Virus record (IMG/VR): IMGVR_UViG_3300027851_000027
Location: 1-63,688 of that record
Origin: a virus
Lineage: Duplodnaviria; Caudoviricetes
Length of the DNA: 63,688 nt
Strand: one strand, 5' to 3'
Shown: one piece after another, positions 4,640-55,900 of the stretch
How positions within the stretch are numbered: the first letter of the stretch is position 1
Layout: every line of letters begins with the position of its first letter
Notes under the pieces: generated by a model
Database searches by the model: none
What the model was told of the DNA's origin: nothing
What the model saw: only the letters and a program-made list of their open reading frames with translations
Position numbers and translations under genes: made by a program

Positions 4640-5560
4640 TCAGCCGCCCTTGATGATCGGGAGGTAGGCCCGGGCGTAAGGTCGTGCTTCCGTCGCGTCT
4701 CCGCTCGATGTGACGCTGACCGTGTGGGCGTGGGAACCGGCAGATGATGTGCTCGCGCTGGCTGCGGTCACGCCCGTGACGTAGTTGATCGAAAGGCCAC
4801 CGGATGCATACCCTGCGCTGGACGTACCAACGGAACCAAGGCGCGACTCGCTGTGCGTGTGCGCACCGGTGCTACCTGTTGATGCCGCGTGCGTGTGGGT
4901 CAAGTTCACAGGCGCCTGAATGGCACCGACAGCCAGCGCCCCACCGGACGCCCGGATAAACCGGTTGTTCGTCACATCGTTGGGCAGGTTGAACGTCGTG
5001 GTGCCGTCTCCGATGCCGTGGTCTGTTCCGATGAGTGCGAACAACAGAGGGTGATCTGTGCGCGAAACAGCCTGTCCGTTTCGGATCAGCCAACCCACAG
5101 GAGGCGTTGCAGCCGGCCAGTAGGCGATGACACCCGGAGGGATAGAACCACCACTGACCAGCGCCAGCGCATTGGTTGCCACCGTCTCGGCTTCCTGCGC
5201 CGCGAGCAAAGCCGCCTCAGCGTTGGAGATGGCCGACACCAGATCGTTGGCGCTGAACGCCTGATAGGCCACAGCCCCCACGCCCCAGATCCTGGCCGTG
5301 GTCCCGTCCAGCGCCCGGACCACGTTGCTCATGACATCCGAACCACCGGCCCGGGTGCGAACGCCGACGATTTCGATCTGACCAGAGACATCGGTGATGA
5401 ACAGCTTGAACCAGTCATCCACGCTGAACAGCGGACCCGTGTCGGTGTCTGCCACCGGGAACAGATCACCGTCGCCTGACTGAACGCTCAGGGATGTGTC
5501 CGCCGCCGAGATGCCAGCGGCAAGCACCGTGCGCGCGTTGTTGGAGAACTTCTGGGTCAT
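4640..5560 (-). CDS. Tail fibre/collar-domain protein
   Basis: Tail collar motif PPGVIAYW...GWLIRNGQAVSRTDHPLLFALIGT...GDGTTTFNLP; HTH/HAH His repeats. Confidence 0.85.
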   Translation of the reverse strand: MTQKFSNNARTVLAAGISAADTSLSVQSGDGDLFPVADTDTGPLFSVDDWFKLFITDVSGQIEIVGVRTRAGGSDVMSNVVRALDGTTARIWGVGAVAYQAFSANDLVSAISNAEAALLAAQEAETVATNALALVSGGSIPPGVIAYWPAATPPVGWLIRNGQAVSRTDHPLLFALIGTDHGIGDGTTTFNLPNDVTNNRFIRASGGALAVGAIQAPVNLTHTHAASTGSTGAHTHSESRLGSVGTSSAGYASGGLSINYVTGVTAASASTSSAGSHAHTVSVTSSGDATEARPYARAYLPIIKGG

Positions 5561-5585
5561 GCGAATTCCTAGTGTTCAGAATGCA

Positions 5586-5609
5586 AAAACCCGCCGAAGC
5601 GGGTTCTTT
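5586..5609 (-). terminator. Intrinsic terminator, probably bidirectional
   Basis: aaaaacccgccgaagcgggttcttt hairpin (UUCG loop on minus strand) flanked by A/T runs. Confidence 0.8.
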
Positions 5610-5732
5610 GAGGGTGTGGCAGTGACTCTATTGCTGGGTCAGCACGCCCGATCTGGCGGGGATGGAAGCCGTCGCTGGAGGGCTTCGGTATGGCGGGGTG
5701 GGAGGTGGTTACGCCCATATGAAAGCATGTGG

Positions 5733-7280
5733 CTATTCCCGCAGCAACTCGTTAACCGTCACGGCAATTGCTTGGTTTCCCGGCGTCGTGTAGTGGGTGT
5801 TGTCCGTGCCAAGGAAAACTGCACGAGTGCCCGTCCCGCTACCTGCATTCCCCGTACCATGCAGCCATTTCGTGCGCTGCTTCCACCAATGCGGCCTAGG
5901 ACCAGCGTCCGTTCCCATTGGCCCCTGAGTCGGCGTAAGCGACACCGGGGCATATGCAGCCAGCTCCCAGATCGCGTTATTCACTACAACTCTGGCCCCG
6001 TTCGCCATCAATCCACCCGGATACGCAGATGGTGTGACAGCCTGATCAGCGCCACCAATGGGATCAAGATATTTATCGACGTAGGAATTTCCGTTTACCG
6101 CAGAATAGACCAGTCTCGCAGTGACAAGTGATGCGAGCAACGTCTTGTCTGTGCCGGTCGGTTGCGGTCCGATAACACTTGTGGGGCAATTATGCGCCGC
6201 TCTATATGCGGTGATTGTTGAGGACACTGCTTCGGCGATCCCTGAAAGCCCGTTGTCGTTGATTCCTCCGAATAGCATGTGCTCATCAGGTGCAAACAAT
6301 TCAACGTTCTTGATCCGTGACGCATGGCCATATGTTTTCAGGATTGATGCCCCTCCGTCATTCACATATCCGGTGCCACCATACCCGTTGTTCAGAACGT
6401 CGAACCCGTAACGGACAGCAAGTATGCCTGTAAAAGCGTTGAATGCGTTTGACGAGTTCATCGCAGACCCAGTCACAAAGGAATCACCAGTTATGGCGAC
6501 TTTTCTGGCCTGTCGCTCAGACGGGATGATTGCACCGTTCGCACCACACGCGACTCCGACGAGGCCCAGAACATTGCTCGCATACACAGTGACAAGATTC
6601 GGCCCGTCATCTGGCAAATCGATGTCCAGAGACGTGAAGATGGTGAATCCACCGGATGTGTATGCGACTGGCTCAGCGGTGGCGGGTTTGTCGTTTACAA
6701 AAATCCAATAATGCCGCTCAACAGGATTCCTCGCATAAAACCTGAGTGACAGTTTGTTGCCAAAGACCATTTGTTCAACGCCGATTAGCGCATCTTGTGG
6801 ATTTGCAGTCAGGCAGAAGTGCATATCCGTCGCTGGTGCTATCTCTGTCGCGCAGCCCAGAACCTTACAAGACGTAAGCGGAGAAAACGCCACTGTGAAT
6901 CCTGCCGCTATCGAATTCGCAAGTGTCCTGATCGTTGTGGTTACGCCAGCAACAACTACCGACAGGTCGCGCATCAAAGGATACGGTTGGGGGACTTTCG
7001 GTGTCCTGTCTGCCCCAATCCCCGCCCGCACGCTGGCACGCTGCGCAAGGGTCGGAGCAGCTCCGCCGATCTGCATTGCGCCGGTGGTGGGGTCGAGGGT
7101 GAGGCCGTTCACGACGGCTTGTGAGTCGCCAGCGTCTTCGAACTCCGCGAAGCGCAGCATCTCTGTCGCCACGGCATCATCGAGCACCGTGTCAACCTTG
7201 CCCGGCGTCCAGATGATCTGCGTGCGGTCGAAGAAAGCGTCTTCGGTGGGCTTGGTGCCGATGTACTTGATGTTGCGCAT
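5733..7280 (-). CDS. SGNH/GDSL hydrolase (esterase) fused to a virion-protein-like N-terminal domain
   Basis: Blocks GDSF, GYGGTG, GGIND and DNTH; body visibly lower GC than flanks. Confidence 0.8.
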   Translation of the reverse strand: MRNIKYIGTKPTEDAFFDRTQIIWTPGKVDTVLDDAVATEMLRFAEFEDAGDSQAVVNGLTLDPTTGAMQIGGAAPTLAQRASVRAGIGADRTPKVPQPYPLMRDLSVVVAGVTTTIRTLANSIAAGFTVAFSPLTSCKVLGCATEIAPATDMHFCLTANPQDALIGVEQMVFGNKLSLRFYARNPVERHYWIFVNDKPATAEPVAYTSGGFTIFTSLDIDLPDDGPNLVTVYASNVLGLVGVACGANGAIIPSERQARKVAITGDSFVTGSAMNSSNAFNAFTGILAVRYGFDVLNNGYGGTGYVNDGGASILKTYGHASRIKNVELFAPDEHMLFGGINDNGLSGIAEAVSSTITAYRAAHNCPTSVIGPQPTGTDKTLLASLVTARLVYSAVNGNSYVDKYLDPIGGADQAVTPSAYPGGLMANGARVVVNNAIWELAAYAPVSLTPTQGPMGTDAGPRPHWWKQRTKWLHGTGNAGSGTGTRAVFLGTDNTHYTTPGNQAIAVTVNELLRE

Positions 7281-21339: not shown

Positions 21340-21686
21340 GCTTCATCCACCCGGCACGGCGAAGGGTTCTCATCGAACCGCACCGCCTTGATTGTTGGGA
21401 ATCCCTTCCACATGCACTTCATGATCCGGTGCCGGCCATCCATGATTTCTCCGTCTTCGTCCAGAATGATCGGCATGGCCAAGTCGGCGGCTTCGATGGC
21501 CTTGATGTGCATGACCAACTCGCGCATGGTCAGTTTGTTGTAGTAGTGCCAGACGTTCAGGTGAGCGAGCGGAACTTCCATCACGGGGAGGTCTTTCGAT
21601 AGCTCGAACAAGCGGGGCACGCTCCAGTGGTGCCGCCCGATCTGAGACATCTGGTCTACGGGGTCGGTCCAGGGTTTGATCTTCAT
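21336..21686 (-). CDS. ParB/Srx-like domain protein
   Basis: PIILDEDGEIMDGRHR motif. Confidence 0.75.
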   Translation of the reverse strand: MKIKPWTDPVDQMSQIGRHHWSVPRLFELSKDLPVMEVPLAHLNVWHYYNKLTMRELVMHIKAIEAADLAMPIILDEDGEIMDGRHRIMKCMWKGFPTIKAVRFDENPSPCRVDEA

Positions 21687-22021
21687 GATCGGCTGATCCT
21701 CGTCATCTTTCCGCAGTGGTCGCACTTGGTTTTTGAACGCTCTGCCAAGCGTTTCATCTGGTCTTGGTAGGTCGCTGCTGACTGCATCCATTGGCTCTCT
21801 TGCTTCATCAGGTTTTCCAGAACGAACATCGGGGACACCTCTCCGCCACAGGAAAGGCACTTGCACTTTCCGCCTTTGACATTGACCTCGAAAGGCCCTC
21901 TCCAATGGCTGCATGTCCCAATGGGCACCGGCTGCAGAAAGGCCTCTCCTATCGGCTGGCGTTTCTTGACCGGCAACTTGAGGATGTTTTCCCCACTCAC
22001 ATCAACTGGCGGCAGGTTCAT
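21683..22021 (-). CDS. Zinc-ribbon hypothetical protein
   Basis: CLSCGG and CDHCGK; ATGA-coupled. Confidence 0.7.
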   Translation of the reverse strand: MNLPPVDVSGENILKLPVKKRQPIGEAFLQPVPIGTCSHWRGPFEVNVKGGKCKCLSCGGEVSPMFVLENLMKQESQWMQSAATYQDQMKRLAERSKTKCDHCGKMTRISRS

Positions 22022-22473
22022 GCGGGCCACCTCGGGAGATTCGCAGGCCACTGGCCAGATTCTTCGATCTGCGCGCGGGTTTCGGCGGCCCACTTCCTGC
22101 CCATTCGGATGTGCTCAGCGCGGTCGATGAACAAGGCGTAGCGGTCGAAACGTGAGTGGCATCCCAGCGATCCGGGTTCATCGGCGCAAAGTGGCATGGC
22201 GCGTCTGTCATCCAGCTTCAAGGCCTTGCCCTTGCCTTCGTTTTCGTGGGCGTGCTGACTGCGGCCTTCGCGCCGGCAGTTCGCGCAAGGCAGCGCGGCC
22301 ACCAGGCGGCGGTAGGGTTCGCTGCGCACCGGGTTTTCTTTCTCGATGGCCTCATGCACTGCGGTGACAGGTCCCATGCTGGCGTTGCGGCGCAGATGCA
22401 AAGGGATCGGTGTGTGGATGGTCCGCTTGCGCTCGATCTGCGGGCGCTTGAAACTGGAACGTTTTAGCGTCAT
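22018..22473 (-). CDS. DUF968-like putative nuclease
   Basis: LPCANC...QHAH...DD..AMPLC...CH..FD. Confidence 0.7.
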   Translation of the reverse strand: MTLKRSSFKRPQIERKRTIHTPIPLHLRRNASMGPVTAVHEAIEKENPVRSEPYRRLVAALPCANCRREGRSQHAHENEGKGKALKLDDRRAMPLCADEPGSLGCHSRFDRYALFIDRAEHIRMGRKWAAETRAQIEESGQWPANLPRWPA

Positions 22474-22574
22474 GCGGCCTCCCTCATGGCATTGACCGCC
22501 TCGACAGCCTCAATGCGCCTACCGATCCAAGCGGCCACGGGTACAGCCCAGCTATTTCCGAGCGCCTTGTAGCG
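22470..22574 (-). pseudogene. Orphaned original 3' end (motif X) of the C5-MTase
   Basis: Encodes RYKALGNSWAVPVAAWIGRRI...EAA*, 18/21 aa identical to the MTase segment at 23239..23301; retains ATGA coupling to the next gene. Confidence 0.85.
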
Positions 22575-22610
22575 TATAGAATTTAGGCAATTCATCTGAA
22601 AGGGTTTTGT

Positions 22611-23261
22611 ATGGTTCTTTGTTCGATTGAAGGCTGTGGTCGCAAGCACGCAGCTCACGGTTTCTGCTTGATGCACTACAAGCGCGTTCAGAAGCACGGG
22701 ACGCCCGAATACCGATGGGGCGGCAAGGAAGTTGGTCGGCAATGCCTTCACTGCGATAGGCCCGTGACGGCTCGCGAACTTTGCGTTCGGCATTACCAGA
22801 TGTGGCATCGACATGGAGATGCGCTCTTCGCGGACAGCAAGAAGGTTGATGGCATGGCTGCTGGCGAGCACATGCGGCGCGGATACAAGATGGTGACGCC
22901 TTCCGCTACGGCGCTGAAAGCTGTAAGCGCCAGCCTTGCGACGGTCGAGAAGACGCACAAGGCGCACGCCGCCAACTTTGAGGCAAAGGGGCTGCGAGAT
23001 GGAAGCAGCAGGAGCCGCCGACAATGGGAGCATCGCAAGATCGCCGAGGCCAAGTCGGGGCAGATCGTTCACCATATCGACGGCGACCCGTTGAACAATG
23101 CAAGGGAGAACTTGCATGTGTTCAACTCCCCAGCGGAGCACGCGCGTGCTCACCGTTCGTTGGAAAAAGCCGCGTATGGCTTTCTGCGTTCGGGGTTGCT
23201 TGTGTTTGACGCTGAGAGTGGATGCTATCTACCAGTGCAATCCTCTCGCCAATCCACCTAG
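22611..23261 (+). CDS. HNH homing-type endonuclease with two N-terminal Cys/His zinc repeats
   Basis: EHR...VHHIDGDPLNNARENL...EHARAH; antisense to its operon; gaaaggg RBS. Confidence 0.88.
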   Translation: MVLCSIEGCGRKHAAHGFCLMHYKRVQKHGTPEYRWGGKEVGRQCLHCDRPVTARELCVRHYQMWHRHGDALFADSKKVDGMAAGEHMRRGYKMVTPSATALKAVSASLATVEKTHKAHAANFEAKGLRDGSSRSRRQWEHRKIAEAKSGQIVHHIDGDPLNNARENLHVFNSPAEHARAHRSLEKAAYGFLRSGLLVFDAESGCYLPVQSSRQST

Positions 23262-24654
23262 CTACTGGCACGGCCCAACTGTTACCCAAACTTTTATACC
23301 TTGGCCCATCCGGGCACTGGTCTGCTGGCTTCTTTCTCCATGGGATTTGTGTGTGGCCGGGAGAAAATCCTTGGAGTTTTTCGCATTCCTCGGGCGTAAG
23401 GCGGCGCACTTGCATCCCGGCTTGCGGTTGTACGGCGAATGGCGATTTCTCAAAAGCTCGCAAGCAATCCGTCCGGTCTTCACTGATGCCCATGCTGCTG
23501 GCATCGTTGCCGCTCTTGTGCATGTTGAATGCGACGGCTGTAGGGTTTACAGCACACAGTGATGGTCTCAACTCTTCCGAGCTGGCGCACTGCGTAGCAC
23601 TCATGCGACCAGGGAACGCAATCGCAGGCGCATGCGCCCCAGCGGCCAGCGGGTGGCAAGGATCGCCCGCCTTCGGGTTGCTGTAGTTCGCTTTGCTGGT
23701 GATCTGGGTGGTGTCGAAACAGACCGCCTGCACCTCTGCCCGTGCTTCCAGCGTGTACGCATGGTCGGCCTGCACGCCCACTCCATCCGGTCCACTGTTT
23801 GGGTTGGTGCGCAGTGCGCCAGCCTGGATAGCGAACGAAACTGGCACCAGTGGCGTTCCGCGCCCCGTGCCGTCCTCACTGGCGTCAAAGCCCTCGCCGC
23901 GCAGGCTGTGCGCAACATACGGAGCTTCGTGGTTGCAGTTCAGCGTCGGAGCCATGTCGGCACCGATTTCGGCACCGGCCTGACCCGTGGCTACGCAGAT
24001 AGTTTTATCAATCAGATGGCCGGCTCTTGCGTGATCGACATCGCTACCGCCTTGAGTGCTTCTGAGAGTGCCGGCGGTAGATCCTTTCCGCGCTTGTCGG
24101 CTCGGCGCAGGATGCCCTTGCAGGCTGTGGCGCTCAAAAAGAACCGCTGCGGCACTGCGCCAGTCTCCAAGACATCCGACAACGAACACACGGCGGCGGC
24201 GCTGGGCCACTCCAAAGTACTGAGCGTCCAGAACCCGGTAGGCGAACCCATACCCGAGTTGGCCCAGCATCCCGAGGAAGGTTCCAAAATCCCTTCCTCC
24301 GTTGCTGGACAGGACGCCGGGGACGTTCTCCCAAACCAGCCACTTGGGCCGATACTTTGCAGCAATGGCACCGTAGGTAAGCATGAGGTTGCCACGCGGG
24401 TCATCCAGTCCCTTTCGGAGTCCTGCGACGCTGAATGATTGGCAGGGGGTTCCTCCGCAAAGAAGGTCAATTGCATGGTCGGGCCAGTCCTTGAATTTGG
24501 TCATGTCGCCGTGGTTCGGCACATCGGGGTAGTGGTGGGCCAGCACGGCGCTGGGGAAGGGTTCGATTTCGCTGAACGCCACAGGCTTCCACCCGAGCGG
24601 CTTCCATGCGGAACTCGCGGCCTCGATCCCTGAGCAGACGGATAGGAATCTCAT
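23122..24654 (-). CDS. C5-cytosine DNA methyltransferase (alpha chain) with long multi-unit variable region
   Basis: Motifs I (SVCSGIEA), IV (GGTPCQSFS), VI (ENV), VIII (QRRRRVF), RRLTPEECEKLQGF and X (LGNSWAV). Confidence 0.93.
   Translation of the reverse strand: MRFLSVCSGIEAASSAWKPLGWKPVAFSEIEPFPSAVLAHHYPDVPNHGDMTKFKDWPDHAIDLLCGGTPCQSFSVAGLRKGLDDPRGNLMLTYGAIAAKYRPKWLVWENVPGVLSSNGGRDFGTFLGMLGQLGYGFAYRVLDAQYFGVAQRRRRVFVVGCLGDWRSAAAVLFERHSLQGHPAPSRQARKGSTAGTLRSTQGGSDVDHARAGHLIDKTICVATGQAGAEIGADMAPTLNCNHEAPYVAHSLRGEGFDASEDGTGRGTPLVPVSFAIQAGALRTNPNSGPDGVGVQADHAYTLEARAEVQAVCFDTTQITSKANYSNPKAGDPCHPLAAGAHAPAIAFPGRMSATQCASSEELRPSLCAVNPTAVAFNMHKSGNDASSMGISEDRTDCLRAFEKSPFAVQPQAGMQVRRLTPEECEKLQGFSPGHTQIPWRKKPADQCPDGPRYKSLGNSWAVPVARWIGERIALVDSIHSQRQTQATPNAESHTRLFPTNGEHARAPLGS
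24012..24476 (-). CDS. Nested alternative-frame ORF resembling the M.EcoHK31I beta polypeptide
   Basis: SSGCWANSGM...WTLSTLEWPS....CSLSDVLE.....FFLS......ILRRA..RG..LP; AAGGA 11 nt upstream of ATG. Confidence 0.7.
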   Translation of the reverse strand: MQLTFFAEEPPANHSASQDSERDWMTRVATSCLPTVPLLQSIGPSGWFGRTSPASCPATEEGILEPSSGCWANSGMGSPTGFWTLSTLEWPSAAAVCSLSDVLETGAVPQRFFLSATACKGILRRADKRGKDLPPALSEALKAVAMSITQEPAI

Positions 24655-25139
24655 GCGGCCACCTCTTCCCGCTTCGGCGCGCGGCGCAAGTCGATCAGCT
24701 TCCCGGTGCTCGGGTCGATGGCCTTTTCAGGGATGTCGTGCTCCATCGACACCCCCCAAAAATAGATCCACTCGATCAGGTCTGCCATATCGCGCCCGCT
24801 CATTTCAGAGGTCTTGAGGAACACGATGTCGATGCCCTTTCCATCCAGGGCCGGCAGGTACTCGATGGCCTCTCCTTTGGCGCGCGACCATGCGGACACC
24901 GTGAGCCTCTTCCATTCATCGATCGATCGGTATTCGCCGGCCCATGGCACGTTCTTTGACAGCCATCCCAGCATTGCGTGAAGGCGCGCGCTGTGTTCTG
25001 CGCTGCGCTTGGCCGGGCGCACCACCAGCTCCAGCTTGTGGCCTGCGATGTTCATCGCCTTGCACCACTCTTTCACCGGGCCAGCAAGAACCTTGTGGCT
25101 CTCGACCCAGTTCGGCGTCAGGATGAAGGTCTTGTTCAT
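24651..25139 (-). CDS. ninB: NinB/Orf-family recombination protein
   Basis: KRS..HSARLHAML...EWK...TSEMS...MADLIEWI. Confidence 0.8.
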   Translation of the reverse strand: MNKTFILTPNWVESHKVLAGPVKEWCKAMNIAGHKLELVVRPAKRSAEHSARLHAMLGWLSKNVPWAGEYRSIDEWKRLTVSAWSRAKGEAIEYLPALDGKGIDIVFLKTSEMSGRDMADLIEWIYFWGVSMEHDIPEKAIDPSTGKLIDLRRAPKREEVAA

Positions 25140-27676
25140 GCGGCCTCGCTCAGTTCTTCGGGTTCACAGAGGTCAAAAAGAGTCGGCATCGAGAAATCGC
25201 GTTCAGCCGCCTGCAGGTAGTGCACCTGATCCTTGAAGTAGTCGGCGTTCAGCTCAGACCCTGCAGCGCGTCGACCCTTCTTGATCGCGCGCACGCCCAC
25301 CGTGCCAAGTCCGTGAAACGGGTCATAGACCACCTCGCCGGCCATGCTGTAGCGCTCGATCAGGCGGTCCACGATGTCGAACTGCAGGGGGCACACATGC
25401 TTCTCGACCGCGCGGTTCGCCTGCTCCCCATTGAGCGTGCGCATGCGGTTGATGTCGTGCCACACGTCCGGGTGATGCGACCCCGGCGCCAGGCTCATGA
25501 AGGTGGACGGAAGTGCGTTGCGATCCTGCAGTTGCTCACCAATGCTGACGTGCTTCTCGTAGTCGTAGACGTTGCGCAAGCTGTCCTCTGTGAAGAACTT
25601 GGCCAGCTTCGCAGGACCCATCTGCGCCATCTCTTCGGCGGTCATCAGGCGGTTCCCGTTGGAGCGCCAGAAGGCATGCGCATCAACTTGCCAGCGCGCC
25701 AGGCTGTATTCGCTCTTGTCCTTGCGGATCGGAGTGTCGGCGTAGCCGCGCGAGCGGTCGCTCTGTGGCTTGTGGAAGATCAGCACGTACTCTGGAGAGC
25801 CGACACCCATCTTGGAACCGTCCTTGCACATTTCGGTGTAGCCCAGGCGGTAGGTCTGGTTGTTCTCGCGCACCACGTCCGTGTTGACGGTGATCATCCC
25901 CATGTAGTCGAAGCCGTGCTTGATGCCGTGGAACAGTGCCTCAGCATGGAACGGGCTCACGGTCGGAATGCCGGCGCCGGTCACGTTGCCGAAGTTGATC
26001 CGGTCCTTGACGTGGCAGGCGTAGATGCGGCCAGGCTTCAAGATGCGCAGGAGTTGCGGTGTCAGGAAGTCCATCTGAGCCCAGAAGTGCGGGTTGCCTT
26101 CTGTGTGGCCGAAATCGTTGTAGCTCGGGCTGTACTCGTAATGGTTGGCAAACGGGATCGACGTGACGATCAGGTCCACCGAGTTCTCTCCACGGTGCGC
26201 AGCCTCGGCAACGCAGTCGTTGTGCGCCACGTCGAAGCGCTCGCCCTTCACTGCTGTGCGCGTGCAGCCGATGGTGCGTGCCAGCGTGTCCTGCATGGCC
26301 AGGTGACTCAGGCCATAGGTGCGGATGATTTCGGCCATCTTGGCCTGCATCTCGTTGTGCTGGTCCCACTTCTTTTGCAGCGTCGCCAACACCTCTCGCT
26401 CGCTCTCGGTGTGCACGATGTCGATGCGAACGGCGTGCTCTTGCCCGAAGCGTTGAACCCGGTGCAAGGCCTGGATGAAGTCATTGAACTTGAACCCGAT
26501 GCCGGCGAATATTTCGCGGTGGCAATGGCGCTGGAAGTTGCAGCCACTGCCGGCGATGATCGGCTTCGTGGACAAGATGCGGTGCTTGCCATCGCTGAAG
26601 TCCACGATGCGCTGTTCGCGTTCGTCCAGATCCTGCGTTCCCCACACGCTCAGAGCTTCCGGGATGGCTTGTTGGATTGAATGGCGCTCGTCTTCTAGGT
26701 CGTGCCAGACGATGAAGTGATCTTCCGGCGCTTCGGCGATCAGCTCACGCACCTTCTCGACCCGGGCCGGCATGCTCTGGCGCTTCTCGGTTGCCGCGGC
26801 GCTCAATCCCATGGCCACGTCAGGTATCAGCAGGCCCTGGCCGTTCTTTTCCTCGCCGGCCGCGTCGTAGTCGCTGGGCACTTCGTGATACCGCACGTCC
26901 AGATCGGGCAGGGCGTACCCCTCGTCGCTGTGGCCAAGGTCGCTCGGGCGCTGGATGAAGACCGCCCAACTCGCAACCCACATCCAGAATTCCTGTTCCT
27001 TGTGCGGGTACAGCGTGAGGTTGCCAGCCTGTGAGCTGTCCCGCTGGAAAAAGCGCGTCAGGGCCTGGCCGGTGTCCATCACGCCCAGATATCCCGCGTA
27101 GTGAATCAGCTCCTTGAAGCGGTTCGGGCTTGGCGTGGCCGTGGCCACGAACTTGAATTCGACAGGCGCAAATGCCGGCAGGAACTCCTGATAGGTCTTG
27201 CTCCCGTAGCTGCGCAGCACGCTCGCCTCGTCCAGGCTGGTCGCACGGGCCTTGGACACGTCGAGCTTGCCGTCGCGGATGCTCTCGTAGTTCGTCATGT
27301 AGACGGTGCGCTCGTCGTCAATCTCGGCGTCGGAGCGGATGAACTTCAGGTCCATCGCGAAGTCGCCAGCAAAGCGCTTCACCACCTCCTGCTTGAACTC
27401 CTGGCGCACGCCAAGCGGCATGCAGATCACGCGCAGGCCTGGCCGATGGATGCCGATCAGGCGCATCAGCTCCAACTGAGTAGCGGTCTTGTGCAGGCCG
27501 AAGCTGGCGAAGATCGCGCGGTTGCCACCCTTCACGGCCCACTTCACGATGTCGCGTGTGTGCGGCTTCAGCTCCGGGTTGATCTGGTCGAGTTCAACGT
27601 CGAACCCATCGAAGCTGGCCAGCTTGATTTTGTTCCTCAGGAACTGTTCGTAGTCGCTTAAAATTTGTGCAGTCAT
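25136..27676 (-). CDS. SNF2-like helicase fused to N4C/N6A DNA methyltransferase
   Basis: FGLHKT, LDEAS, TATP and QALHRVQRFGQ helicase motifs; TSIPF and DPFHGLGT MTase motifs (beta order). Confidence 0.9.
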   Translation of the reverse strand: MTAQILSDYEQFLRNKIKLASFDGFDVELDQINPELKPHTRDIVKWAVKGGNRAIFASFGLHKTATQLELMRLIGIHRPGLRVICMPLGVRQEFKQEVVKRFAGDFAMDLKFIRSDAEIDDERTVYMTNYESIRDGKLDVSKARATSLDEASVLRSYGSKTYQEFLPAFAPVEFKFVATATPSPNRFKELIHYAGYLGVMDTGQALTRFFQRDSSQAGNLTLYPHKEQEFWMWVASWAVFIQRPSDLGHSDEGYALPDLDVRYHEVPSDYDAAGEEKNGQGLLIPDVAMGLSAAATEKRQSMPARVEKVRELIAEAPEDHFIVWHDLEDERHSIQQAIPEALSVWGTQDLDEREQRIVDFSDGKHRILSTKPIIAGSGCNFQRHCHREIFAGIGFKFNDFIQALHRVQRFGQEHAVRIDIVHTESEREVLATLQKKWDQHNEMQAKMAEIIRTYGLSHLAMQDTLARTIGCTRTAVKGERFDVAHNDCVAEAAHRGENSVDLIVTSIPFANHYEYSPSYNDFGHTEGNPHFWAQMDFLTPQLLRILKPGRIYACHVKDRINFGNVTGAGIPTVSPFHAEALFHGIKHGFDYMGMITVNTDVVRENNQTYRLGYTEMCKDGSKMGVGSPEYVLIFHKPQSDRSRGYADTPIRKDKSEYSLARWQVDAHAFWRSNGNRLMTAEEMAQMGPAKLAKFFTEDSLRNVYDYEKHVSIGEQLQDRNALPSTFMSLAPGSHHPDVWHDINRMRTLNGEQANRAVEKHVCPLQFDIVDRLIERYSMAGEVVYDPFHGLGTVGVRAIKKGRRAAGSELNADYFKDQVHYLQAAERDFSMPTLFDLCEPEELSEAA

Positions 27677-46952: not shown

Positions 46953-49900
46953 TCAGGGCGCAGCAGCCAGCGACTTCCTCAGCTTCTCCCCCAGCGTAGC
47001 GTCCCGCCGCGGTGCGTCAATCTCTGCCGCTGCCTCGTTCAGATCGCGCATGACCGCGGTGCGCTCTTCGTCTAGGGCCTTGATGGCTTCGCTGTCGCCC
47101 ACGGTTTCCATCGCCTCTTTGTTGAGTTCGCGCAGATCCTTGACGACCCGGTTCTTCTCCTTCTTCAGCATCGCCTCGGGCTTGTCGGCCTCGATGCGGT
47201 CGGCCGCGTCCAGATCACCCTTCTTCTCGGCAGCACGGATCAGCTTTTCCGCCTTCTCGATGGCGGTCAGGTTGTCGTAGTACCGGCTGCGCTGCACCGA
47301 TGCGTCGTCCACCTCGCCATAGAAGCGGCCGAACACCGGGAGTCCGGTCGGCTTGGTGTCTTCGCCTTTGGACATGGCGATGCTGGTGTTCACGGTCTTC
47401 TCAATTTCTCGCAGAAGGCCACCGCCGACCACCTGGGCCAGGTAGCGCACCATCTCCGGCGTCGGGCTGACCCGGCCGGCCTCGTACTCGTCGCCGCCGC
47501 TGACCTTGTTCAGGATGCGGCTGATTTCTAGGTAGGCCTGACCGGTTGGCGCGCGCAGCGTTCCTTCCCGGGCGCGCTCGAAGCCTGGTCGCGGATCGTT
47601 GCCGTAGCCCTCGCGCTCGATGGCGGCGCCGGCAAAGTTCTTGTTCGACAGAACCTCGATCACCGGGTCGATCACGGTCGGCGCCACGGTGCGCAGCGCG
47701 CCATCGGCGGTGAAGATGTTGCCGCCACCCAGTGGGTTGAACGCGCCGGCAATCTCTCCAACGGCTGCGAAGCCCTTGGTGATCGCATCCTTGCCGCCGT
47801 CCATCGTGAGTTCGGCCAGCACCCGCCCGGTGTTCGGCAGGACGTGCAGGCCCAGCGGCAGCGGGATTGTGAAGTACCGCTTCTTGCCTTCGTCGTCGGT
47901 GCCCAGCGGGATGATGATCGCACGCGACTTCACGAACTCCGGGATTTCGTCGTCATCGTAGCCAGCGGCCAGCAGCATCACCGCCTGCAGCACGCCCAGC
48001 GACACACCGCCTGCGATGATCTTGGCGCCATCCGGTCCGGCCAGGGTCTGCAGCGTGCGCGCGGAGCCCTGAACCGATGCGTTGAAGAAGGCGTACAGCG
48101 GCCCCAGCTCCCGGCCCATGCGACCTTTGCGGTTGAAGTCGACCGTCAGCTCGCGCCCAAGGCGCGCGGCTTCCGGCCGGCTCATGCCTTCCTGCAGGGC
48201 CTCGCGGTACGCGGCCAGGCGGACGGCGTTTTCCAAGGTCGTGTTGAAGATGTCCAGCGCACCCAGCACCTTTCCGGCCACCTTGTCCGTGGTCAGCTTG
48301 CCGGCCTTCTCCATCGCCTTGAGTTCGGCTTCCAGTGCCTTGGCGCGGTCGTTGGCGTCCTTGAACATCTCGCGGTAGCCGGTCTGCCCGCCGTCCTGCT
48401 GGAACTGGCGGAACAGCCGGCCCCACTCGCCGGACTTCTTGCCGGACAGCTCCAGACCGATGCCCTTGAGTGCACCGGGTGTCATGGCCAGGACCTTCAA
48501 GGTCTTGCCGCGCAGCTTGGTCGAGCTCAGGTTGATCGCGCCGCCCAGCGTGTCGCGCGTCAGGTTCACCAGACCGAAGGCCGGGTTGTACTGCGTGTTC
48601 ACGCTGGCCAGCCAGCGCGTCGTCTTGCCGACGATGCTCCCGGCGATGTCGAACTTCGTCAGGCCGTCCATGTTCTTCAGGTTCTCGGCCATGCGCAGCC
48701 CGCGCGGGTCGTTGACGTTGACCATCAGAACCCGGTCTTCGCCGTTCACCTTGAGCACGATGGCGCCTGGCAGGCTCTTGTACATCGGGTTCGGCCGGCT
48801 GACCACGCGGCCCAGCGTCGGGTCCACGGTCTTGATCGTCGGAACGCCCATCATCCCGGCTTCTGCCACGGTCGGGTCAACGCCCATGCGTTGCAATTCC
48901 CTGCCGATGGCTTCCGGTCTCATGCCGGGTTTGATCGTGGTCCAGAAGTCGGGGTTCGGGTTCGTCAGGGCCAGGCCGTACAGCGCCACCGCCACGCGGT
49001 TTTTCTCCGCCCGGGTGATCGCGGCTTCCCGCTGCATCAGGACGTGCGCCAGGATGTTCGTCGCCTGCTTGGTCGAGCCCACGGCGCGCTTGCTGCTGCC
49101 ACCGCGCACGCTCATGCCTGAACCAGTCGGGTGCTGGTTGCCGTTCTCGGCCTCGTCGCGGAACAGCGGGACATAGCTCTTGTATGCGCCGGTCCATGCA
49201 TCGATCGTTTCCTGCTTCTCCAGACCTTCGTCCACCAGCAGTTTCGTCGTGCCCTGGGTGATCGCGTCGACCCGCTTGGCCATGGCAGTCAGAACCATGC
49301 GCTTGCCTTCGGACAGCGCGGCGATGTGCTGCTTCGCTGCCTCGGTGGTCATCAGCACGCCCTTGCTGTTCTTGCCGGCGCCGCCGTCTGGCAGATCAGG
49401 GTTCACCTTGGCGATCTGCTTGTTCCGTTCCTCGGCGTGGCGCGCGTGCAGGTAGTCGGCCAGATCGACCATGGTCACGTTGTTGCGTGCCATGGCGTCC
49501 AGCAGCGGCTTGGCCTCGTCGTCAAGGAACTGCTTGGCGCGTGTCGCAACCCGGCCCGGGTACAGCGTCTCCTGCAGGCGGGCGTCGAACTTCTCTGGGA
49601 TGGTATTGGCCTTGGTGATGGCTTCCTGCACCCGCTTGAGGTCAATGCGGCCGTCCTGCAGCTCATAGACGATGTTGTCCAGTCGTGTTTCCTGCGGGGC
49701 ATCCCAGAACCCGGGCTGGAACATCTCGGCCTGTGCCGGCTTCGCGGCGCCTGCGGCCTTCTCGGCTTCGATGGATGCCGGGGCCTTGGCGGTGCGGCTG
49801 AACCGGATGTCTGGGTTCTGTGGGTCGAAGGCTCCGCGGTTCTTCGTAGCCGACTTCACCTGTGTTGCATCCTTGAAGATGAAGCCCGTGAAACTTCCGT

Positions 49901-52900
49901 CGCTCTCTGGGAGGACCACTCCGTCATAGCCCATGCGCTCAAGCTCATCAACGCCGTACTTGTCGTACTCTTTCCATCCGGCCGGGTTCTCGATCTTTGC
50001 GTAAAGCTCCATGATGTTCTTGGAGCCTTGAGCGCCAGCATCACCGGACTCGATGGATGCGCGATCAGACGTGAACCAGAACAGGCCTTGCGCTCCCTTC
50101 TTGAAGTTCACCTTGTTGAACGCTCCGTCCGTGCCGTGGTACACAACTTGAGGATTCCCGTCAGCGTCAACCACTTTCGAGTCGCCGAACCATGCACGGA
50201 AGGCTGGGGTCTGGGTCTGGTCTTCGCGCATGAACACCGGCTCTTTCGCTGCGCGCGCACTGTCCGCCTTCTTCCCGACTTCAAGGAACCGCTGCGCATT
50301 CACCAGCGCGCCCTGCAGCTCGGCATGGGTCATCTTCACGTCGATGCCGATGGAGCGCAGGAACTCGACCACCTTCGCATAGACCGACTTCACGAACCAG
50401 AAGCCTGGGCGGAAGTTGCCGTCTGCGTCCACAGCCTGCTCGACCACCTTCGCGGCAATCTCGTCGGCTTCCTGCATCTCGGACAGGTTGAACTTTCCGG
50501 CGTCGTCAACGTAGGCTGCGCGCACGTCCTTGCGGATCGCGGCCAACGGCTTGTTGCCGGTCTTCAGGGCGAGCTGGATGTTCCCCATGAACTTCTTCCA
50601 GTCGTCTTTCCCCAGCATCTCTCGCAGGCCGTGGTGAGCGATGGCCTCATGGGTCAGCACCTCCATGGCCTTGGCCTTGTCGCGGATGTTCTGCGCCACG
50701 AGGTAGACCTTGCCGCCGAAATACACGCCGTGCACGTCGCCCGGGGCAGGCATGGGAAGGTCTTTCGTCGTCGCCACCACCGTGACGTTCGGGCCGTTCT
50801 CCCAGCGCTTGAGCACCGGGGCGATGGCCTTCTGCAGATCGGCGGTCTTCATGCCACGCTGCATCGGCGTGGTCATCTGGCGGAAGAGTTCGGCGGTCAG
50901 CGGTCGGCTGTAGAAGATCCGTTCGTCTTTGGAGGTCGATGCAAGTTGCGCTCGTTGGCGAACAAGTTGGTCCAGTAGGCTTTCACCCGCACCGGCCCGC
51001 CCTGATCCATCGCCACCCGTTCCCCGTCCGCGTAGAAGGGAACGGAACACAGCGCCTCGCGCAATCGTTCGCCACCCTGCTCCAGCAAAAGCCGCTCGGC
51101 GTCCAGCTCCTCGTCGGTCGGCAATGGGGCCTCCGGAAAAAAGATCCTTGACCCCTGCCGGATCAAGTCGTTTTTTGTCATCGGCTGAGAAGGTGCCGGA
51201 TTCTGGGTCATAGGTGAGTTGAGCAGCTTCGGGATATGCGCTGTCCAGCGCCTTGACGTTCAGCTCAACCAACCGCTGGATGTTGCCCACGTCATCGCCG
51301 TAGACCCATTTTAGGGCCGGAATCCCCAAGCCGGTAGCCCCGTCCGTCTGCCTCGGGTGCGGCGCCAGGTGGCGTGTCGTGCCGAACTTGAGTGCGCTCG
51401 ACAGCATGTGCTCGGCGCGGCGGCGCATGGCCTCATCCGACAAGCCGGCCGGGTCACCGATGAACATGCGTCCGGTGTTGTGAGCGAACGTGGCGGCGAT
51501 GTTGTAGACCCGGGCACCGTTTTGACCTGGCTTCAGGTTCGACACGTCGATCCACACGTCTTCCATGTCGTCCGGTACATCCTCAGGGTTTTCACCCGGG
51601 CGGCCGGTTTCCCATGTCGTGTTGTTGTCGGCGTCAGTCTCTGCGCCGTAGACGCTTCGCGGGCCGGACTTGCGCACCGTGATCCTGGCCGGCGTTCCGT
51701 CCGGCATGGTCAGGGTGTACATCGTCTCGTTGCCCGGCAAATCGGTCTTGCGGACCTTGATTTCCGGGTCGTGATCGGCCGTGATGCCTTCGATGGTGTC
51801 CTTGTCGGACTTCGGCATCGAATACAGGTCATCGGTTTCGGAGAGGATGGCCAGGGGGTCGGCGCTGCGGGAGAACATCGGCTTAGTACCGCCGTCGCGC
51901 CCATCCTCGACCGTCAGCGTGAAGCTGTCGGCGCCGGACTCGCTCTCGCGCTTGACCTGGGCGCGCGCATCCAACTCATCAGCGCGGCTTACACGTTCCT
52001 GCTGGGCTTCGATGTCGGCGCGCGTCGGTGATTTCAGCGCTGCATCCTCGCGGCGCTTGAGCATCGCAGCCATCTCGCCAAAATTCGGAGCGTCATCCTC
52101 CAGTCGCTGGGTGATCGAGAACATCACGCCTTCCTGCAATCCGGACTTCTCCAAATGGTCCAGCAGAGCGGTTCGCGTGATGTCTCCGTTCATGTAGTCC
52201 ACGACTTGGCGCATGGCCTTCGTCTGGTTTTCCGGCTGTCCTTTCAGCGGTGTGCCGTACTGCCATCGGTCCTGTCCGGTCAGGCGCTCTCGGCGCTCTT
52301 TCCTGCGGTCGCCTAGCGTCAGGTAGTCCACCTGTTTTTGCAGCATGGCATCGGCGATGGCCTTCGCCTCGGCCAGCGTCTTGGCGCTGCTGTCGTTTGA
52401 TCCAGTGCCTTTGCGGATGCCGCCCTTCTGGTAGGACCCGACGTAGAAATTCCCGTCCGTGGTCCGTTGCGGCATGATGGACATTTCAAGTCGCCCGCCG
52501 TCTTGCAGTTTGGCGATGCGCTTGAACAGATCCTTGGCGCCTTCGATGCCCTTCTCTGCCGTCCAGTCGTCGCCAAGCTCCTGCAGAGCAAGACTGCGGC
52601 GGGTCTTGGTGTCTAAGATGGTTGGGCTGTAAGCGGATTGCTCGGCAGGTTCCAGCAGATCGCGCGCCTTCTGCGCCTGGGTCCGACCAACAACCACGCC
52701 GGTAGCGCTCGGGAGAATGGACTTGGCCGGGATTCCGGCAGCGGTCAGGCGTTCGCGCAGCGCCTTCGTGTCGCCCCTGACGGATAGGGTTTCGTCCGGG
52801 CGGTCGGTCAGGCTTTCGCCGGTTCCTTCGCGCGCTTGGCCTTGTTCGCCATCATCTTGGCCAGGATCGCCACGGCCTGCGGGCTTGGCTGCTTCTGCGA

Positions 52901-55900
52901 CGGCTGCGGTGATGGCTGCTTTGACGTGCTCATGGTATTCCTGCTGTGTGGCGTCAGGGTACTGTAGCGCAACACGCTCCAGAATGGTTTCGGAATCTTC
53001 GCCCATCGCCTCCAGTTGAGCGGACAGCGCGGCGACTTCGGCTTGGATTTCCGGGCTGGCCTGTTCGTAGCCGGTGCCCTGGGCGTCATCTTCGGTGTAG
53101 CCGTCATCGTCCAGCGAGGCGAACGGGTCTTCTTCGCTCTCCTGCTGGGCCTTCAGGTGGTCCTCGAACCGGGTCTGGGCCTCGGCTTCGGCCACGGCTT
53201 CCCAGCCTTCTGCGGTGTACTGCGGGCTGGCGATGCTGCGGCGGATGATGTCGCTCGCGGCGTTCTCGGTTTCATCGGTGATGAAGCCGGCTTCCTTGAG
53301 GTCCTGCCCGGCCTGCGCCAGGGTCTTGCCGCTGTCGGTGAACAGCCAACGGTTGCCGATGCGCACGTTCTTGTCGAACCCGGAGTCGGCCATTGAGGAC
53401 TTGGCCAGCCCACCGCGCGCCAGGATGAACCCATGGGCGGACAGCGGGCCTTTGTCTCCCGTGTCGGCGCCACGGATGCGGCGTGCCGCGGATTCCTGCG
53501 CAGCGATCTGCTTCGCGCTCATGGGCTTGAGGATGAACCCCTTGCCGTCCGGCGACTTCACCACGCGCTTGTCGGGGTGCAGCTTCTTTTCCTTGCGCGC
53601 GGCCAGCTCAGTCTTGAAGGGCTTTCCGCCTTCGCTCAGGGGTTGGCTGTTCTGGCCGAGCAGTTCGGACTGTGATAGCGATGGCGAGCTTTTCGCCATC
53701 TCGACGCGCTCCTTCGCGATGACGGATACAGATTCATCAAGGCGCCTCCGAACGCTCTCGCGCAGCGCTTCAACACGCTTGGCGCGCTCCGGGTCTGTTG
53801 CAAATTTCTCCGCAAGATACTCGCCAGCCCGCCGACCACCCCTGGCGATTACTGGATCAACGTCCGTCACCCCATCCGCTTGAACGTCACCGGCTCCAGT
53901 CGCTGCGGGTAGTCCTGCGGCTGCGGCTGCATTGATTCCTGCTGGCGCTGGCGCTTCAACTGGCGCGGCGGCTGCTTGGGCTTCGGTTCCTGGCGCTGCG
54001 TTTTGGACATTGGATTGCTCGGTGGTCGAACTCGGGAACTCATGCACCAGCGGGATCAGTTCTTCGGCGGTCGCATTCAGGCGGATCGCGCGCACCGGCT
54101 TTCCGTTCTGCAGCTTGGCAATCGCTTGGTGATGCCCGTCGATGATGTGCCCGTCAGCGGAAATCAGGATCGATCGATCGGTGTCGCGGTCGGCGGCTTC
54201 CTGAACCTTGGTCTGCGAGAACTCGGCTTGTGTCGGCTTCAGTTCGGCGGGGTCCACCTCGACCTGTTCATGCGTCACGCCCCGGGCGTTCAGGAAGTTG
54301 ACCATCGGCCCCCTGTGGGCCGTCTTCACCTGCGGCATCTCGGCGCGCGGCACGTTCAAGGTGCCGGTCTGCTCGGGGAATTGCTGCCACTCGGTGTTCA
54401 GTGCCGGTACGGCGCCCGGTTGATCGATTCCATCCACACCAGCGCCGCCCAGTCCTTGCGCTTCTGCTGCTGCGGTGTCAACGGCGGCTGGGCCGGCTTC
54501 TTTGGGTGCATCCTGTTGCTCCAGTGATTCGATGTCGGCCATGGTCGACAAAACAGAGTCAAGCATGGCGTCACGCTGCTGCTCGATGGTCGTCGCCAGG
54601 GTGTCAAGGCCGTCGAATGGCTGGGCCTGTCCGGCGTTCACCAGTCCTGTGACGGCCTTTTGAATGAAGCCTGGCACCTTGTCGGCCGGCACCTCGGCCA
54701 GCTTGTTGGCGATGGCTTCCTGCGCCTTGGGAGACAGGCCGGCCAGTTGCGCAGCCTGCTCGAAGTTCCAGCGCGCGGCGGTCTGCACCACGGCGTCACC
54801 TGTCTTGGCGCCGGCCATGCGCGTGTCGCGGTAGCGTTGCTGCAGATCGGGTCCGAAGTCGGCCAGCGCCTCGGTCTCTCGCTCGGTTGTGAACGCGGCC
54901 ATCTCGGTGTTCTGGCGGCGCTCCAGCAGCGCGGCCGCAGTCTCGTCGCCGGTCTTGCGCAGGGCTTCGATCTGGGGCGTGCGGTCCACTGGGCGGGCGA
55001 ACTGCTTGCGCGCCTCGCTGATTGCCACCGGACCACCACCCATGACGGCCGTCTGTCCGATGGTGACTTTCAGCGTGTCGCCGGCCTGCTGCAGGTAGTC
55101 GGACAGCGCGGCCTCGGGGTTCTGCGCGCCCGGGCCGTACTTGTCGCCCAGGAACTGCACCAGCGTGGTCAGTTGCTCGCCTGGGATTTCCTTCATGATC
55201 TGGCGCGCGAAGATCGGTGCCAGCTCTTCGGCTGGGATGCGCGCGGTCAGGCCCTTCAGGATCTTGATCTGTTCGCCAAAACCGAAGCGCTCGCCCAGCA
55301 CCTCGGCGCCAGCCATGACGCCAGCGCGCGCGGCGGCGGTTCCGCCGTCGAGTCCAGAAGCGCGGCCCTGGCTGTACTCCTGCGCGGCCGACTGCCCGAA
55401 CAGGGCCGTCATCGCCGGCCCGCCACCAAGCCCAATGATCAGCGTCGGCGCCGTCTGCGTGATGCTGTTGGCGATGTCGAACACCAGCTTGTCGTTGCCG
55501 GCCTTGGGCTGCAGCGGTGCTGCGATCTGGCGCCCGGTGCGCGCCGTGCGAGCGGCCACATCGGCCACGCCATCGGCACCAACGAAATCGGCAGCGGCCT
55601 CAACGGCGCCCGGAAGCACCTGGCCCAGACCGGTGAAGCCGGCCACCACACCACGCGCGGCCGGGTTCTTGATCGAATCCCGGATGTCCATGCCGATTCC
55701 GGCGGAAGTCGGTACCGGTGTCGCGATGGATTCACCGCGGCGGACGGGCATGTCGTCAATGGCGCGGCGCGTCTCGCTGGCTTCGCGGAAGCTCCACGAC
55801 TTCTCTGGCTGCAGTTGCACGCCCTCCAGCACACTGACCTTCTTGGCCGCTGGTGCCGCGGTGTCGGCCATCAACTGGTCGGCGTGGTCCTCCCATGCAG

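Follow-up and report, generated by a model that had tools for sequence, protein, structure and literature searches.

The subject of this analysis is a free-standing HNH endonuclease gene that lies in antisense orientation within the C5-cytosine DNA methyltransferase (hereafter methylase) gene of a virus of the Caudoviricetes, represented by the complete 63,688-base virus record IMGVR_UViG_3300027851_000027, which we refer to in its whole length as the window. The HNH cassette is inserted directly 5' of the codons that open the conserved motif X, and it brings with it a second copy of this motif (termed X'). As a result, the methylase is completed from cassette DNA, and the native motif X, the native tail, and the ribosome-binding junction of the next gene are left behind as an untranslated orphan. 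An HNH homing element that has neither an intron nor an intein around it and that carries a recoded motif X is, in our judgment, a likely explanation of the locus as a whole. A preliminary description of the same DNA had proposed that a cassette inserts in an essential motif and supplies its own recoded 3' end, and the data presented below support this structural reading.

The native and the cassette-borne end of the methylase gene

The methylase of the window is encoded by a single open reading frame (ORF) of 510 amino acids (aa) that matches the PF00145 profile and has motif X in frame (...RYKSLGNSWAVP...), and its residues 1-483 are 79% identical to those of L004, an HNH-less locus. Motif X' sits just beyond the HNH stop, and the HNH and methylase ORFs overlap tail to tail in antisense over 140 nt. 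A second methylase match in the window (E=5.3e-11), 36 nt before the HNH start codon, corresponds to the orphan, which terminates in a Shine-Dalgarno (SD)-like ...gggaggccgcATGA junction with the next gene (22018-22473). Comparison of the two copies reproduced the counts given in the preliminary description, as 18 of the 21 residues are the same and 15 of the 16 shared degenerate residues differ in codon, leaving only the final Ile codon in common. At the DNA level, 37 of the 63 bases are identical, and the longest exact run common to X' and the orphan is 5 nt. The preliminary description also had the in-frame copy as the AT-richer of the two, running antisense into the HNH 3' end, and the orphan as the copy that retains the coupling to the next gene; both statements hold, with a GC content of 0.49 in the in-frame copy vs 0.62 in the orphan, the overlap given above, and an SD-like GGGAGG followed by an ATGA stop/start overlap at the orphan end (Table 1).

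To decide which copy is ancestral, the window can be compared with methylase relatives in viral contigs, of which 367 were found and the best 80 loci kept; none of these best 80 carries this HNH gene. In the closest HNH-less loci (L004, L005, L006, L007, and L009), motif X continues through ...WIGxRIE/Q...EAA-stop straight into gaggcNgcATGA, as in the window orphan and as would be expected from the earlier proposal that HNH-less homologs run into the orphan-type tail. The EAA-stop ending owes its conservation to the ribosome-binding site and start codon that the next gene has there. Over the last 105 nt of the L004 gene, the orphan matches 89 positions and X' with its tail only 57, and within the 63 nt of motif X itself the corresponding figures are 53 and 41. 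Because it is the orphan and not X' that matches the L004 end, these sequences indicate that the orphan is the native gene end and X' the newcomer. Relatives that normally end in the AT-rich copy, the reverse case raised in the preliminary description, were not found; a canonical GC-rich motif X is present in 69 of the 71 distinct HNH-less genes, and the other two (L005 and L071) are AT-rich in their first five to six codons only. Searches of GenBank phages by blastn returned nothing for the HNH gene or the orphan part and matched the 5' two-thirds of the methylase only, with 69 records that are all 60-80% identical and none of which covers 80% of the query; Burkholderia phage Bcep22 is among these weak methylase matches. 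Several hundred extra bases were also seen inside the methylase gene of three HNH-less loci (L010 1386-1981, where they follow directly after the motif IX region, L013 5203-5660, and L039 4951-5738), which could be other insertions or variable target-recognition regions.

The genes around the locus are closely packed. A NinB-family gene (24651-25139) lies between the methylase and an 846-aa ORF (25136-27676, minus strand) two genes upstream of it, and the 4-nt overlaps between the end of the 846-aa ORF and the start of the NinB gene, and between the end of the latter and the methylase start, point to a tightly coupled three-gene operon. On the other side, the product of the next gene also matches an HNH family, phrog_131 (E=9e-12), and weakly DUF968, so that a second HNH-like protein is encoded beside the element. 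Elsewhere in the window, an ORF of 3052 codons is present at 46953-56111 (minus strand).

Table 1. Features of the methylase locus, in window coordinates
Feature	Position	Strand	Remarks
C5-cytosine DNA methyltransferase ORF, 510 aa	23122-24654	-	Intact; ends with the cassette-borne motif X' and a new tail; PF00145, E=1.1e-50
Codons -35 to -1 upstream of X', probable co-conversion tract	23302-23406	-	L005-like almost codon for codon
X', in-frame substitute motif X rich in A/T at third codon positions (RYKSLGNSW...)	23239-23301	-	Cassette-borne
New methylase C-terminal tail, 38 aa and stop	23122-23238	-	Antisense reading of the HNH 3' end; unrelated to the native tail
HNH cassette	22575-23328	antisense in methylase gene	Directly 5' of the Arg-Tyr-Lys codons opening motif X
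Free-standing HNH endonuclease gene, 216 aa	22611-23261	+	PF13392; seven PHROG HNH families
AT-rich cassette end (leader), from orphan to HNH start codon	22575-22610	+	Sharp left boundary of the insertion
Orphan native motif X (RYKALGNSW...)	22512-22574	-	Displaced 727 nt downstream, outside the methylase frame
Orphan native tail, 14 codons (...EAVEAVNAMREAA, stop)	22470-22511	-	SD-like GGGAGG and ATGA stop/start overlap with the next gene
Estimated mobile unit (part of the orphan, HNH gene, X', and 9 codons upstream)	22527-23328	.	Block ~97.5% identical in run X6, with both flanks unlike the window
Next operon gene, 151 aa	22018-22473	-	phrog_18962; start overlaps the stop of the orphan
Open frame, codon-aligned antisense of the whole HNH gene, running into the orphan	22470-23228	-	Possible bridge ORF or relic; weak support

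The HNH family, its mobility, and the fate of the orphan

Searches with the HNH protein and with a seven-member alignment identified six close relatives in viral contigs and 13 further metagenome contigs, with 52-79% identity to the window HNH, and a search of a genome collection gave L119 (HNH of 36% identity) as the sole real relative. Sixteen loci extend past the HNH stop (the window, L084-L089, L124-L127, and L129-L133); in all of them a methylase motif X on the opposite strand abuts the HNH 3' end or overlaps it by 83-161 nt, and X' is complete. The host methylases of this family are ~35-60% identical to the N-terminal 430 residues of the window enzyme. The status of the orphan was judged in 18 loci with enough sequence upstream of the HNH start. 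It is intact in 12 (the window, L085, L086, L087, L125, L126, L127, L129, L131, L132, L135, and L136), a deleted remnant in four (L084, L089, L130, and L134), and not recognizable in two (L088 and L133). The 5' boundary of the orphan is always at, or not more than two codons from, the Arg-Tyr-Lys codons, and each of the four remnants lacks ~6-8 codons in a deletion that starts directly after Gly-Asn, that is, recurrently at one place. The HNH family thus recurs together with a duplicated motif X, which was one of the searches suggested in the preliminary description.

The clearest indication of mobility comes from pairs of loci in which the cassette is nearly the same and its surroundings are not. 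L127 and L129 share a ~740-nt block of ~99.5% identity comprising the leader, the HNH gene, X', and ~7 codons upstream of X'. This block starts at the base after the first codon of the orphan, which places the cassette boundary at that codon, and outside it the orphans are ~80% alike, the native tails are different, and the upstream methylase sequences cannot be aligned. The window cassette, including X', was in turn found at 96-98% identity in contigs of three runs (X3, X6, and X20) from three other studies. The X6 contig matches 22527-23328 with 20 differences and departs from the window on both sides of this block; the left junction is within the orphan, at the Trp codon, beyond which a different native tail is found (homologous, with 15 of 24 bases identical), and the right junction lies 9 codons upstream of X'. 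The X3 contig matches 22469-23316 with 31 differences, 9 of those listed being within 50 nt of the orphan, and upstream of the shared part it has 280 other letters in place of 184 nt of the window, and the X20 contig matches 22561-23281 with 14 differences. Run X2 contains the same phage, with 0 differences in the pieces of the cassette, and adds nothing further. Within the window itself, methylase codons -35 to +5 follow L005 almost codon for codon and farther upstream the gene follows L004, a mosaic that looks like a conversion tract; the X6 junction within the orphan would likewise fit co-conversion of flanking sequence. From these comparisons of contigs, the occurrence of the cassette, X' included, almost unchanged in different methylase alleles appears well supported, and with it both its mobility and the carriage of a gene end.

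It could be argued that the HNH gene is an old and immobile resident that diverged together with the methylase and was perhaps domesticated, for example as a partner nuclease, given that HNH and methylase are always adjacent and that HNH identities of 52-67% go with diverged methylases. This scenario is very improbable in the face of the near-identical cassettes in unlike flanks, seen both among the contigs of the family and in the three other studies, of the absence of the HNH from the best 80 of the 367 methylase loci, and of the existence of the scar alleles described below.

The absence of an intron was addressed with profile searches. Rfam gave 0 matches at E<=1 for window positions 21500-25000 and no intron or other RNA family for 14 related loci, no match to a group I intron core was obtained in the window or in these 14 loci, and Pfam reported only PF00145 and PF13392 at the locus, with no intein domain. 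On these grounds, and from its antisense orientation relative to the host gene, the HNH ORF is in neither an intron nor an intein. One could still suppose that the orphan is a working methylase end, reached by RNA or protein splicing, by a +1 frameshift, or by translation across the antisense HNH, and that X' is dispensable. In 7 of 8 loci the frame of the orphan is open for 654-720 nt across the antisense HNH gene, always at +1 from the X' frame, and in L119 (2845-4854; from a bacterial metagenome-assembled genome), whose HNH was mentioned above, the methylase ORF does continue across the antisense HNH gene to a native motif X, of which there is just one copy. Against this, no intron model or intein domain was matched and the HNH ORF is antisense to its host gene; the orphans are internally deleted in 4 of 18 loci and gone in 2, whereas X' is complete in 16 of 16; and comparable codon-aligned antisense frames are common in this phage, being open in 47% of its 210-codon stretches. 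A programmed +1 frameshift at the methylase stop was considered and set aside, as no canonical slippery site was seen there by eye. We therefore see little chance that the orphan still serves as the methylase end and continue to regard it as displaced, with L119 possibly standing for the ancestral state of the clade to which the window belongs.

The antisense frame may have another role. In the window it offers an ATG (23115-23117), 4 nt past the methylase stop, with GGGGAG 8 nt upstream. This ATG is opposite the His codon of the invariant NLH motif, a codon that is CAT in 12 of 14 loci; in the family it is preceded by GGAG at ~8 nt, and it is positioned 7 nt after the first base of the methylase stop in the window and L127 and 8 nt before it in L085, L086, and L087. 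The frame could thus be a translated bridge that carries ribosomes to the native ATGA junction. Selection for such a bridge ORF is unsupported by codon usage, because TTA, CTA, and TCA codons occur 35 times in the HNH genes across the family vs 40.1 expected, and the frame may instead be the relic of a read-through ancestor.

As for the enzyme itself, the window HNH matches PF13392 (HNH_3) over residues 141-171 with 28.0 bits, above the curated cut-off of 24.8. The HNH domain is C-terminal and is preceded by an N-terminal region with two Cys/His-rich C..GC..C..HY.R...HG repeats. In an alignment of seven HNH members sharing 51-63% identity, His-154, His-155, Asn-163, Asn-167, His-169, His-177, and His-181 are invariant, and the gene is present as a single copy in the record. 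A sequence search of the PDB with the HNH gave no match, and in an AlphaFold model (mean predicted local distance difference test score, pLDDT, of 60.7) only residues ~140-210 are confident; a Foldseek search of this model against the PDB returned nothing at E<=0.001, the top match being I-HmuI with E=1.4. A promoter and terminator scan of 22300-23500 gave no sigma-70-like site, and a single terminator-like site at shuffle level. The idea, formed by eye, that the cassette end and the orphan each contribute half of an HNH promoter was dropped.

Respelling of motif X, candidate scar alleles, and a proposed model of homing

The extent to which X' departs from natural spellings was evaluated against 2373 motif X pairs from 71 distinct HNH-less methylase genes. 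In these pairs the codon is the same at 0.39 (39%) of the shared degenerate residues on average, and only 0.17% of the pairs are as different as the 1 of 16 found in the window. Natural copies with low GC content at third codon positions (GC3) share 31% of codons with natural high-GC3 copies; X' shares 21% with the same high-GC3 copies, 23% with the orphans of any locus, and 15% with its own orphan (17 of 111 codons, pooled over eight loci). This signature is strongest close to the insertion point. For example, AGR is found at codon 0 in 9 of 14 X' copies vs 14 of 71 natural copies; at codon 1, 11 of the 14 X' copies have TAT (9 of 71 in HNH-less genes), with TAC in 62 of the 71 natural copies; and GGC occupies codon 5 in 1 of 14 vs 50 of 71. 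In GC3, X' is below the 200 codons upstream of it in 15 of 15 loci (0.52 vs 0.66 in the window) and below the accompanying HNH gene in 14 of 15. When motif X is compared with the 200 codons that precede it, its GC3 is on average lower in 14 HNH-bearing genes (-0.233) and slightly higher in the 71 HNH-less genes (+0.077), only two of which reach -0.2 or lower, and one of these, L014, carries a different endonuclease. Together, these comparisons of codons indicate that the recoding is real and belongs to the element.

Two HNH-less alleles are of particular interest in this respect. L005 (motif X at 5180-5242) has the X' spelling for six codons (AGG TAT AAA AGT TTG GGT) and then canonical GC-rich codons, and L071 (motif X at 5372-5434) has it for five codons, the remainder of the motif having a GC3 of 1.00. 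Both lie in GC-rich contexts and have native-type tails after the switch, and they look like products of partial homing or of cassette loss. The point of the switch, codons 5/6, coincides with the start of the deletion (after Gly-Asn) in the remnant orphans of L084, L089, L130, and L134, and from this coincidence a cut in the native motif X is predicted near the Gly-Asn|Ser codons, ~20 nt 3' of the insertion point.

Based on these observations, a homing cycle can be proposed. The HNH enzyme would cut HNH-less methylase genes in motif X, and an HNH-bearing genome would serve as the template from which repair copies the cassette. The conserved upstream codons for ...PADQCPDGP would provide one homology arm, the other being the orphan of the donor, which has the common GC-rich spelling of motif X and might in this way match many recipients; the latter role has some direct support, because the X6 recombination junction lies inside the orphan. 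X' would restore the methylase, so that the phage would lose little, and its synonymous spelling, rich in A/T at third codon positions (AT3), would prevent recutting of the rebuilt site. The continuous identity between X' and the orphan, 5 nt at most, would be far below what homologous recombination needs, and the element would not easily be lost. Decay would then set in where new homing events cease to renew the orphan. In terms of function, we infer from these features that the recoding would plausibly act as immunity or as protection against deletion.

A number of points weigh against this reading, or parts of it. The contrast in GC3 between HNH-bearing and HNH-less genes has a Mann-Whitney P of 1e-8, which is overstated, as the loci are related and are not independent trials. 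X' is shifted to AT3 at nearly every wobble position, as would be expected from a compositional legacy no less than from selection, given that the DNA around distant HNH relatives has a GC content of 32-45%; moreover, the 15% of codons that X' shares with its own orphan is little different from the 23% shared with the orphans of other loci. If the target site were wholly within motif X, intact orphans ought to be cut, and recognition therefore probably needs upstream codons as well. Splicing is excluded solely through the absence of an intron or intein signature in the sequences. Among the contigs of the four runs (X2, X3, X6, and X20) no joint skipping the cassette was seen, and no HNH-less copy of the same phage with identical flanks was found, the nearest empty site being the 79% identical methylase. 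In L086 and L087, finally, X' shares unusual residues with the local orphan (TY and PKF, respectively) in different codons, which does not fit a simple model of X' coming from outside and suggests that X' has stayed for long within one methylase subfamily, or else that the two copies have exchanged sequence and X' was respelled afterwards.

The same residues in L086 and L087 might be taken to mean that the methylase 3' end was first duplicated locally and that the HNH gene settled later between the copies, the in-frame copy being the native one. We find this order of events hard to credit, as X' is part of the 96-99.5% identical block in loci whose orphans and flanks differ, the X' copies of different loci share the AGR TAT signature that is rare in HNH-less genes, and it is the orphan that matches the HNH-less relatives. 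A more serious alternative accepts the architecture and the mobility as described and takes the recoding to be functionless, as a leftover from a low-GC donor, with immunity resulting simply from the split target. Besides the A/T shift at nearly all wobble positions, the low GC of the DNA around the distant HNH relatives, and the similar codon sharing with own and other orphans, this is consistent with HNH genes being often lower in GC3 than their host methylase genes. On the other hand, in 14 of the 15 loci X' is lower in GC3 than the HNH gene traveling with it and so has changed less than its neighbor, and the 21% of codons shared with natural high-GC3 copies is under the 31% for natural low-GC3 copies. 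In addition, the upstream codons and X' rebuild the whole coding site, so that a change in X' would be needed if the enzyme reads motif X, and the two HNH-less scar alleles retain exactly the recoded first codons. We regard a functionless recoding as possible but would not favor it.

Beyond the homing element with a carried recoded motif X, a stronger interpretation can be put forward, on a tentative basis and with considerable doubt, in which the family is a natural "home-and-rescue" gene drive specialized on the linker before motif X of C5-methylases, all of its parts having evolved as devices to this end. Here, X' would be kept recoded by selection, both for escape from the nuclease of the element and as a barrier to partial homing and deletion; the orphan would be a portable homology arm that permits jumps between methylase genes only 35-60% identical; and the antisense frame, with an SD sequence and ATG at the methylase stop, would be a translated bridge that keeps the coupling to the next gene of the operon.

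Related insertions, known elements, and implications

More distant HNH relatives (26-38% identity, DNA GC content of 0.32-0.45) share the strand of the methylase gene and lie between its motifs IX and X, and no intron model matched there. In 22 of the 24 loci of this clade (which include L097, L099, L139, L141, L155, and L157), the frame one base ahead is free of stops across the HNH gene, the third frame having 13-30 stops, and this open frame is the methylase ORF. The distance from motif IX to the stop is 36-53 residues in 18 of 18 HNH-less relatives of one such methylase vs 234 in the HNH-bearing gene. Apparently, then, the host protein reads through the nuclease gene in another frame and acquires an insert of ~190 aa, and the sense-strand HNH gene has the appearance of an overprint on a read-through insert in this protein. 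L138, which is GC-rich and 38% identical, has the antisense layout of the window clade. A different element is present in L014, where an unrelated ORF of EndoVII/HNH type (phrog_1035; 5661-6314, plus strand, 217 aa), found also in L015, lies on the sense strand directly after the methylase. The methylase motif X of L014 (region 5560-6320) is AT3-rich (GC3 of 0.38 vs 0.75 upstream), and the C terminus of the ORF runs in frame into an orphan native tail (...RWIGERIQAVEAINAMKEAA, stop) with the usual ATGA junction. The linker before motif X has thus been invaded repeatedly, and the carriage of a spare gene end has arisen at least twice, independently.

Homing of free-standing endonuclease genes without introns occurs in T4-like phages, in which SegB, SegF, SegG, and MobE are examples. 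In those systems a free-standing nuclease gene, found in some relatives and missing from others, lies between or beside phage genes and spreads through the repair of breaks, with co-conversion of flanking markers. The window element resembles them in its free-standing gene and its patchy occurrence and would spread in a similar manner; it differs from them in that they sit between genes or split one into pieces and are not known to bring a replacement for the displaced gene part. Presence and absence at one site, and the same element in different alleles, are both found in the window family. The intron-encoded HNH enzyme I-HmuI likewise has an HNH catalytic motif and a target in the conserved coding sequence of a phage gene, whereas the window HNH has no intron and shows no significant similarity to I-HmuI in sequence (0 PDB matches) or in fold (E and pLDDT as given above).

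A closer likeness exists in fungal mitochondria. In mobile open reading frames (mORFs), an endonuclease ORF inserts together with a foreign C-terminal part and the native part stays downstream, for example in atp6 of Allomyces macrogynus and in atp6, atp9, cox2, and nad3 of Glomus sp., according to the part of PMC3630166 that treats them. In those cases, as in ours, the ORF is inserted in the 3' part of a protein gene, the foreign C-terminal part is in frame and the native part lies downstream, and the native part is far closer in DNA to element-free relatives than the inserted part, the proteins staying alike. The window gene has such an in-frame C-terminal part and retained native part, the latter being the closer to L004 (89 vs 57 of 105). 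Differences lie in the host, here a phage, in the HNH enzyme, in the target, which is a motif of the methylase catalytic domain, and in the orientation of the ORF, which is antisense here and overlaps the new tail, whereas mORFs are in phase with the gene or downstream of it. Furthermore, the family-wide AT3 recoding, the scar alleles, and the series of orphan decay belong to the window family, and none is described for mORFs in that part of PMC3630166. The window element thus works like a mORF without being a member of that group, since it is neither mitochondrial nor on the same strand as its host gene, and represents a new variant.

A parallel can also be drawn with engineered drives. In recoded-rescue drives, insertion in a needed gene is compensated by a synonymously recoded version of the displaced part, partial homing gives rise to resistant alleles free of the element, and the recoded copy prevents both recutting and partial homing, as presented in the portion of PMC8996256 concerned with this design. 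L005 and L071 resemble the resistant alleles described there. Those drives are man-made, RNA-guided, and used in insects, whereas the window element occurs in nature and relies on a protein for recognition, and the function of its recoding is one that we infer. In the literature searched, to which subscription journals and supplements did not belong, no account was found of a phage C5-methylase that has an HNH gene at motif X and an end that is duplicated and recoded.

From an evolutionary point of view, homing endonuclease genes are commonly considered to need an intron, an intein, or an intergenic gap to live harmlessly in a genome. The family described here represents another route in phages, in that the element goes into the part of a gene whose coding sequence is most conserved, where a target for spread among diverged relatives is best placed, and compensates for the damage with a respelled copy of the displaced part. 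If the home-and-rescue interpretation is true, the family would show a series that leads from read-through insertion, as in the overprinted sense-strand clade and in the antisense L119, to rescue by duplication. The sequences also give testable predictions for the cut site. For annotation, the orphan and the long antisense frame would be miscalled, and the end of the methylase would look chimeric. The sense-strand clade raises the question of what size of insertion is tolerable in the hinge of the methylase. Together, these data suggest that natural phage populations may already show the outcomes that worry those who model gene drives, namely resistant scars (L005 and L071), decaying orphans, and transfer between alleles.

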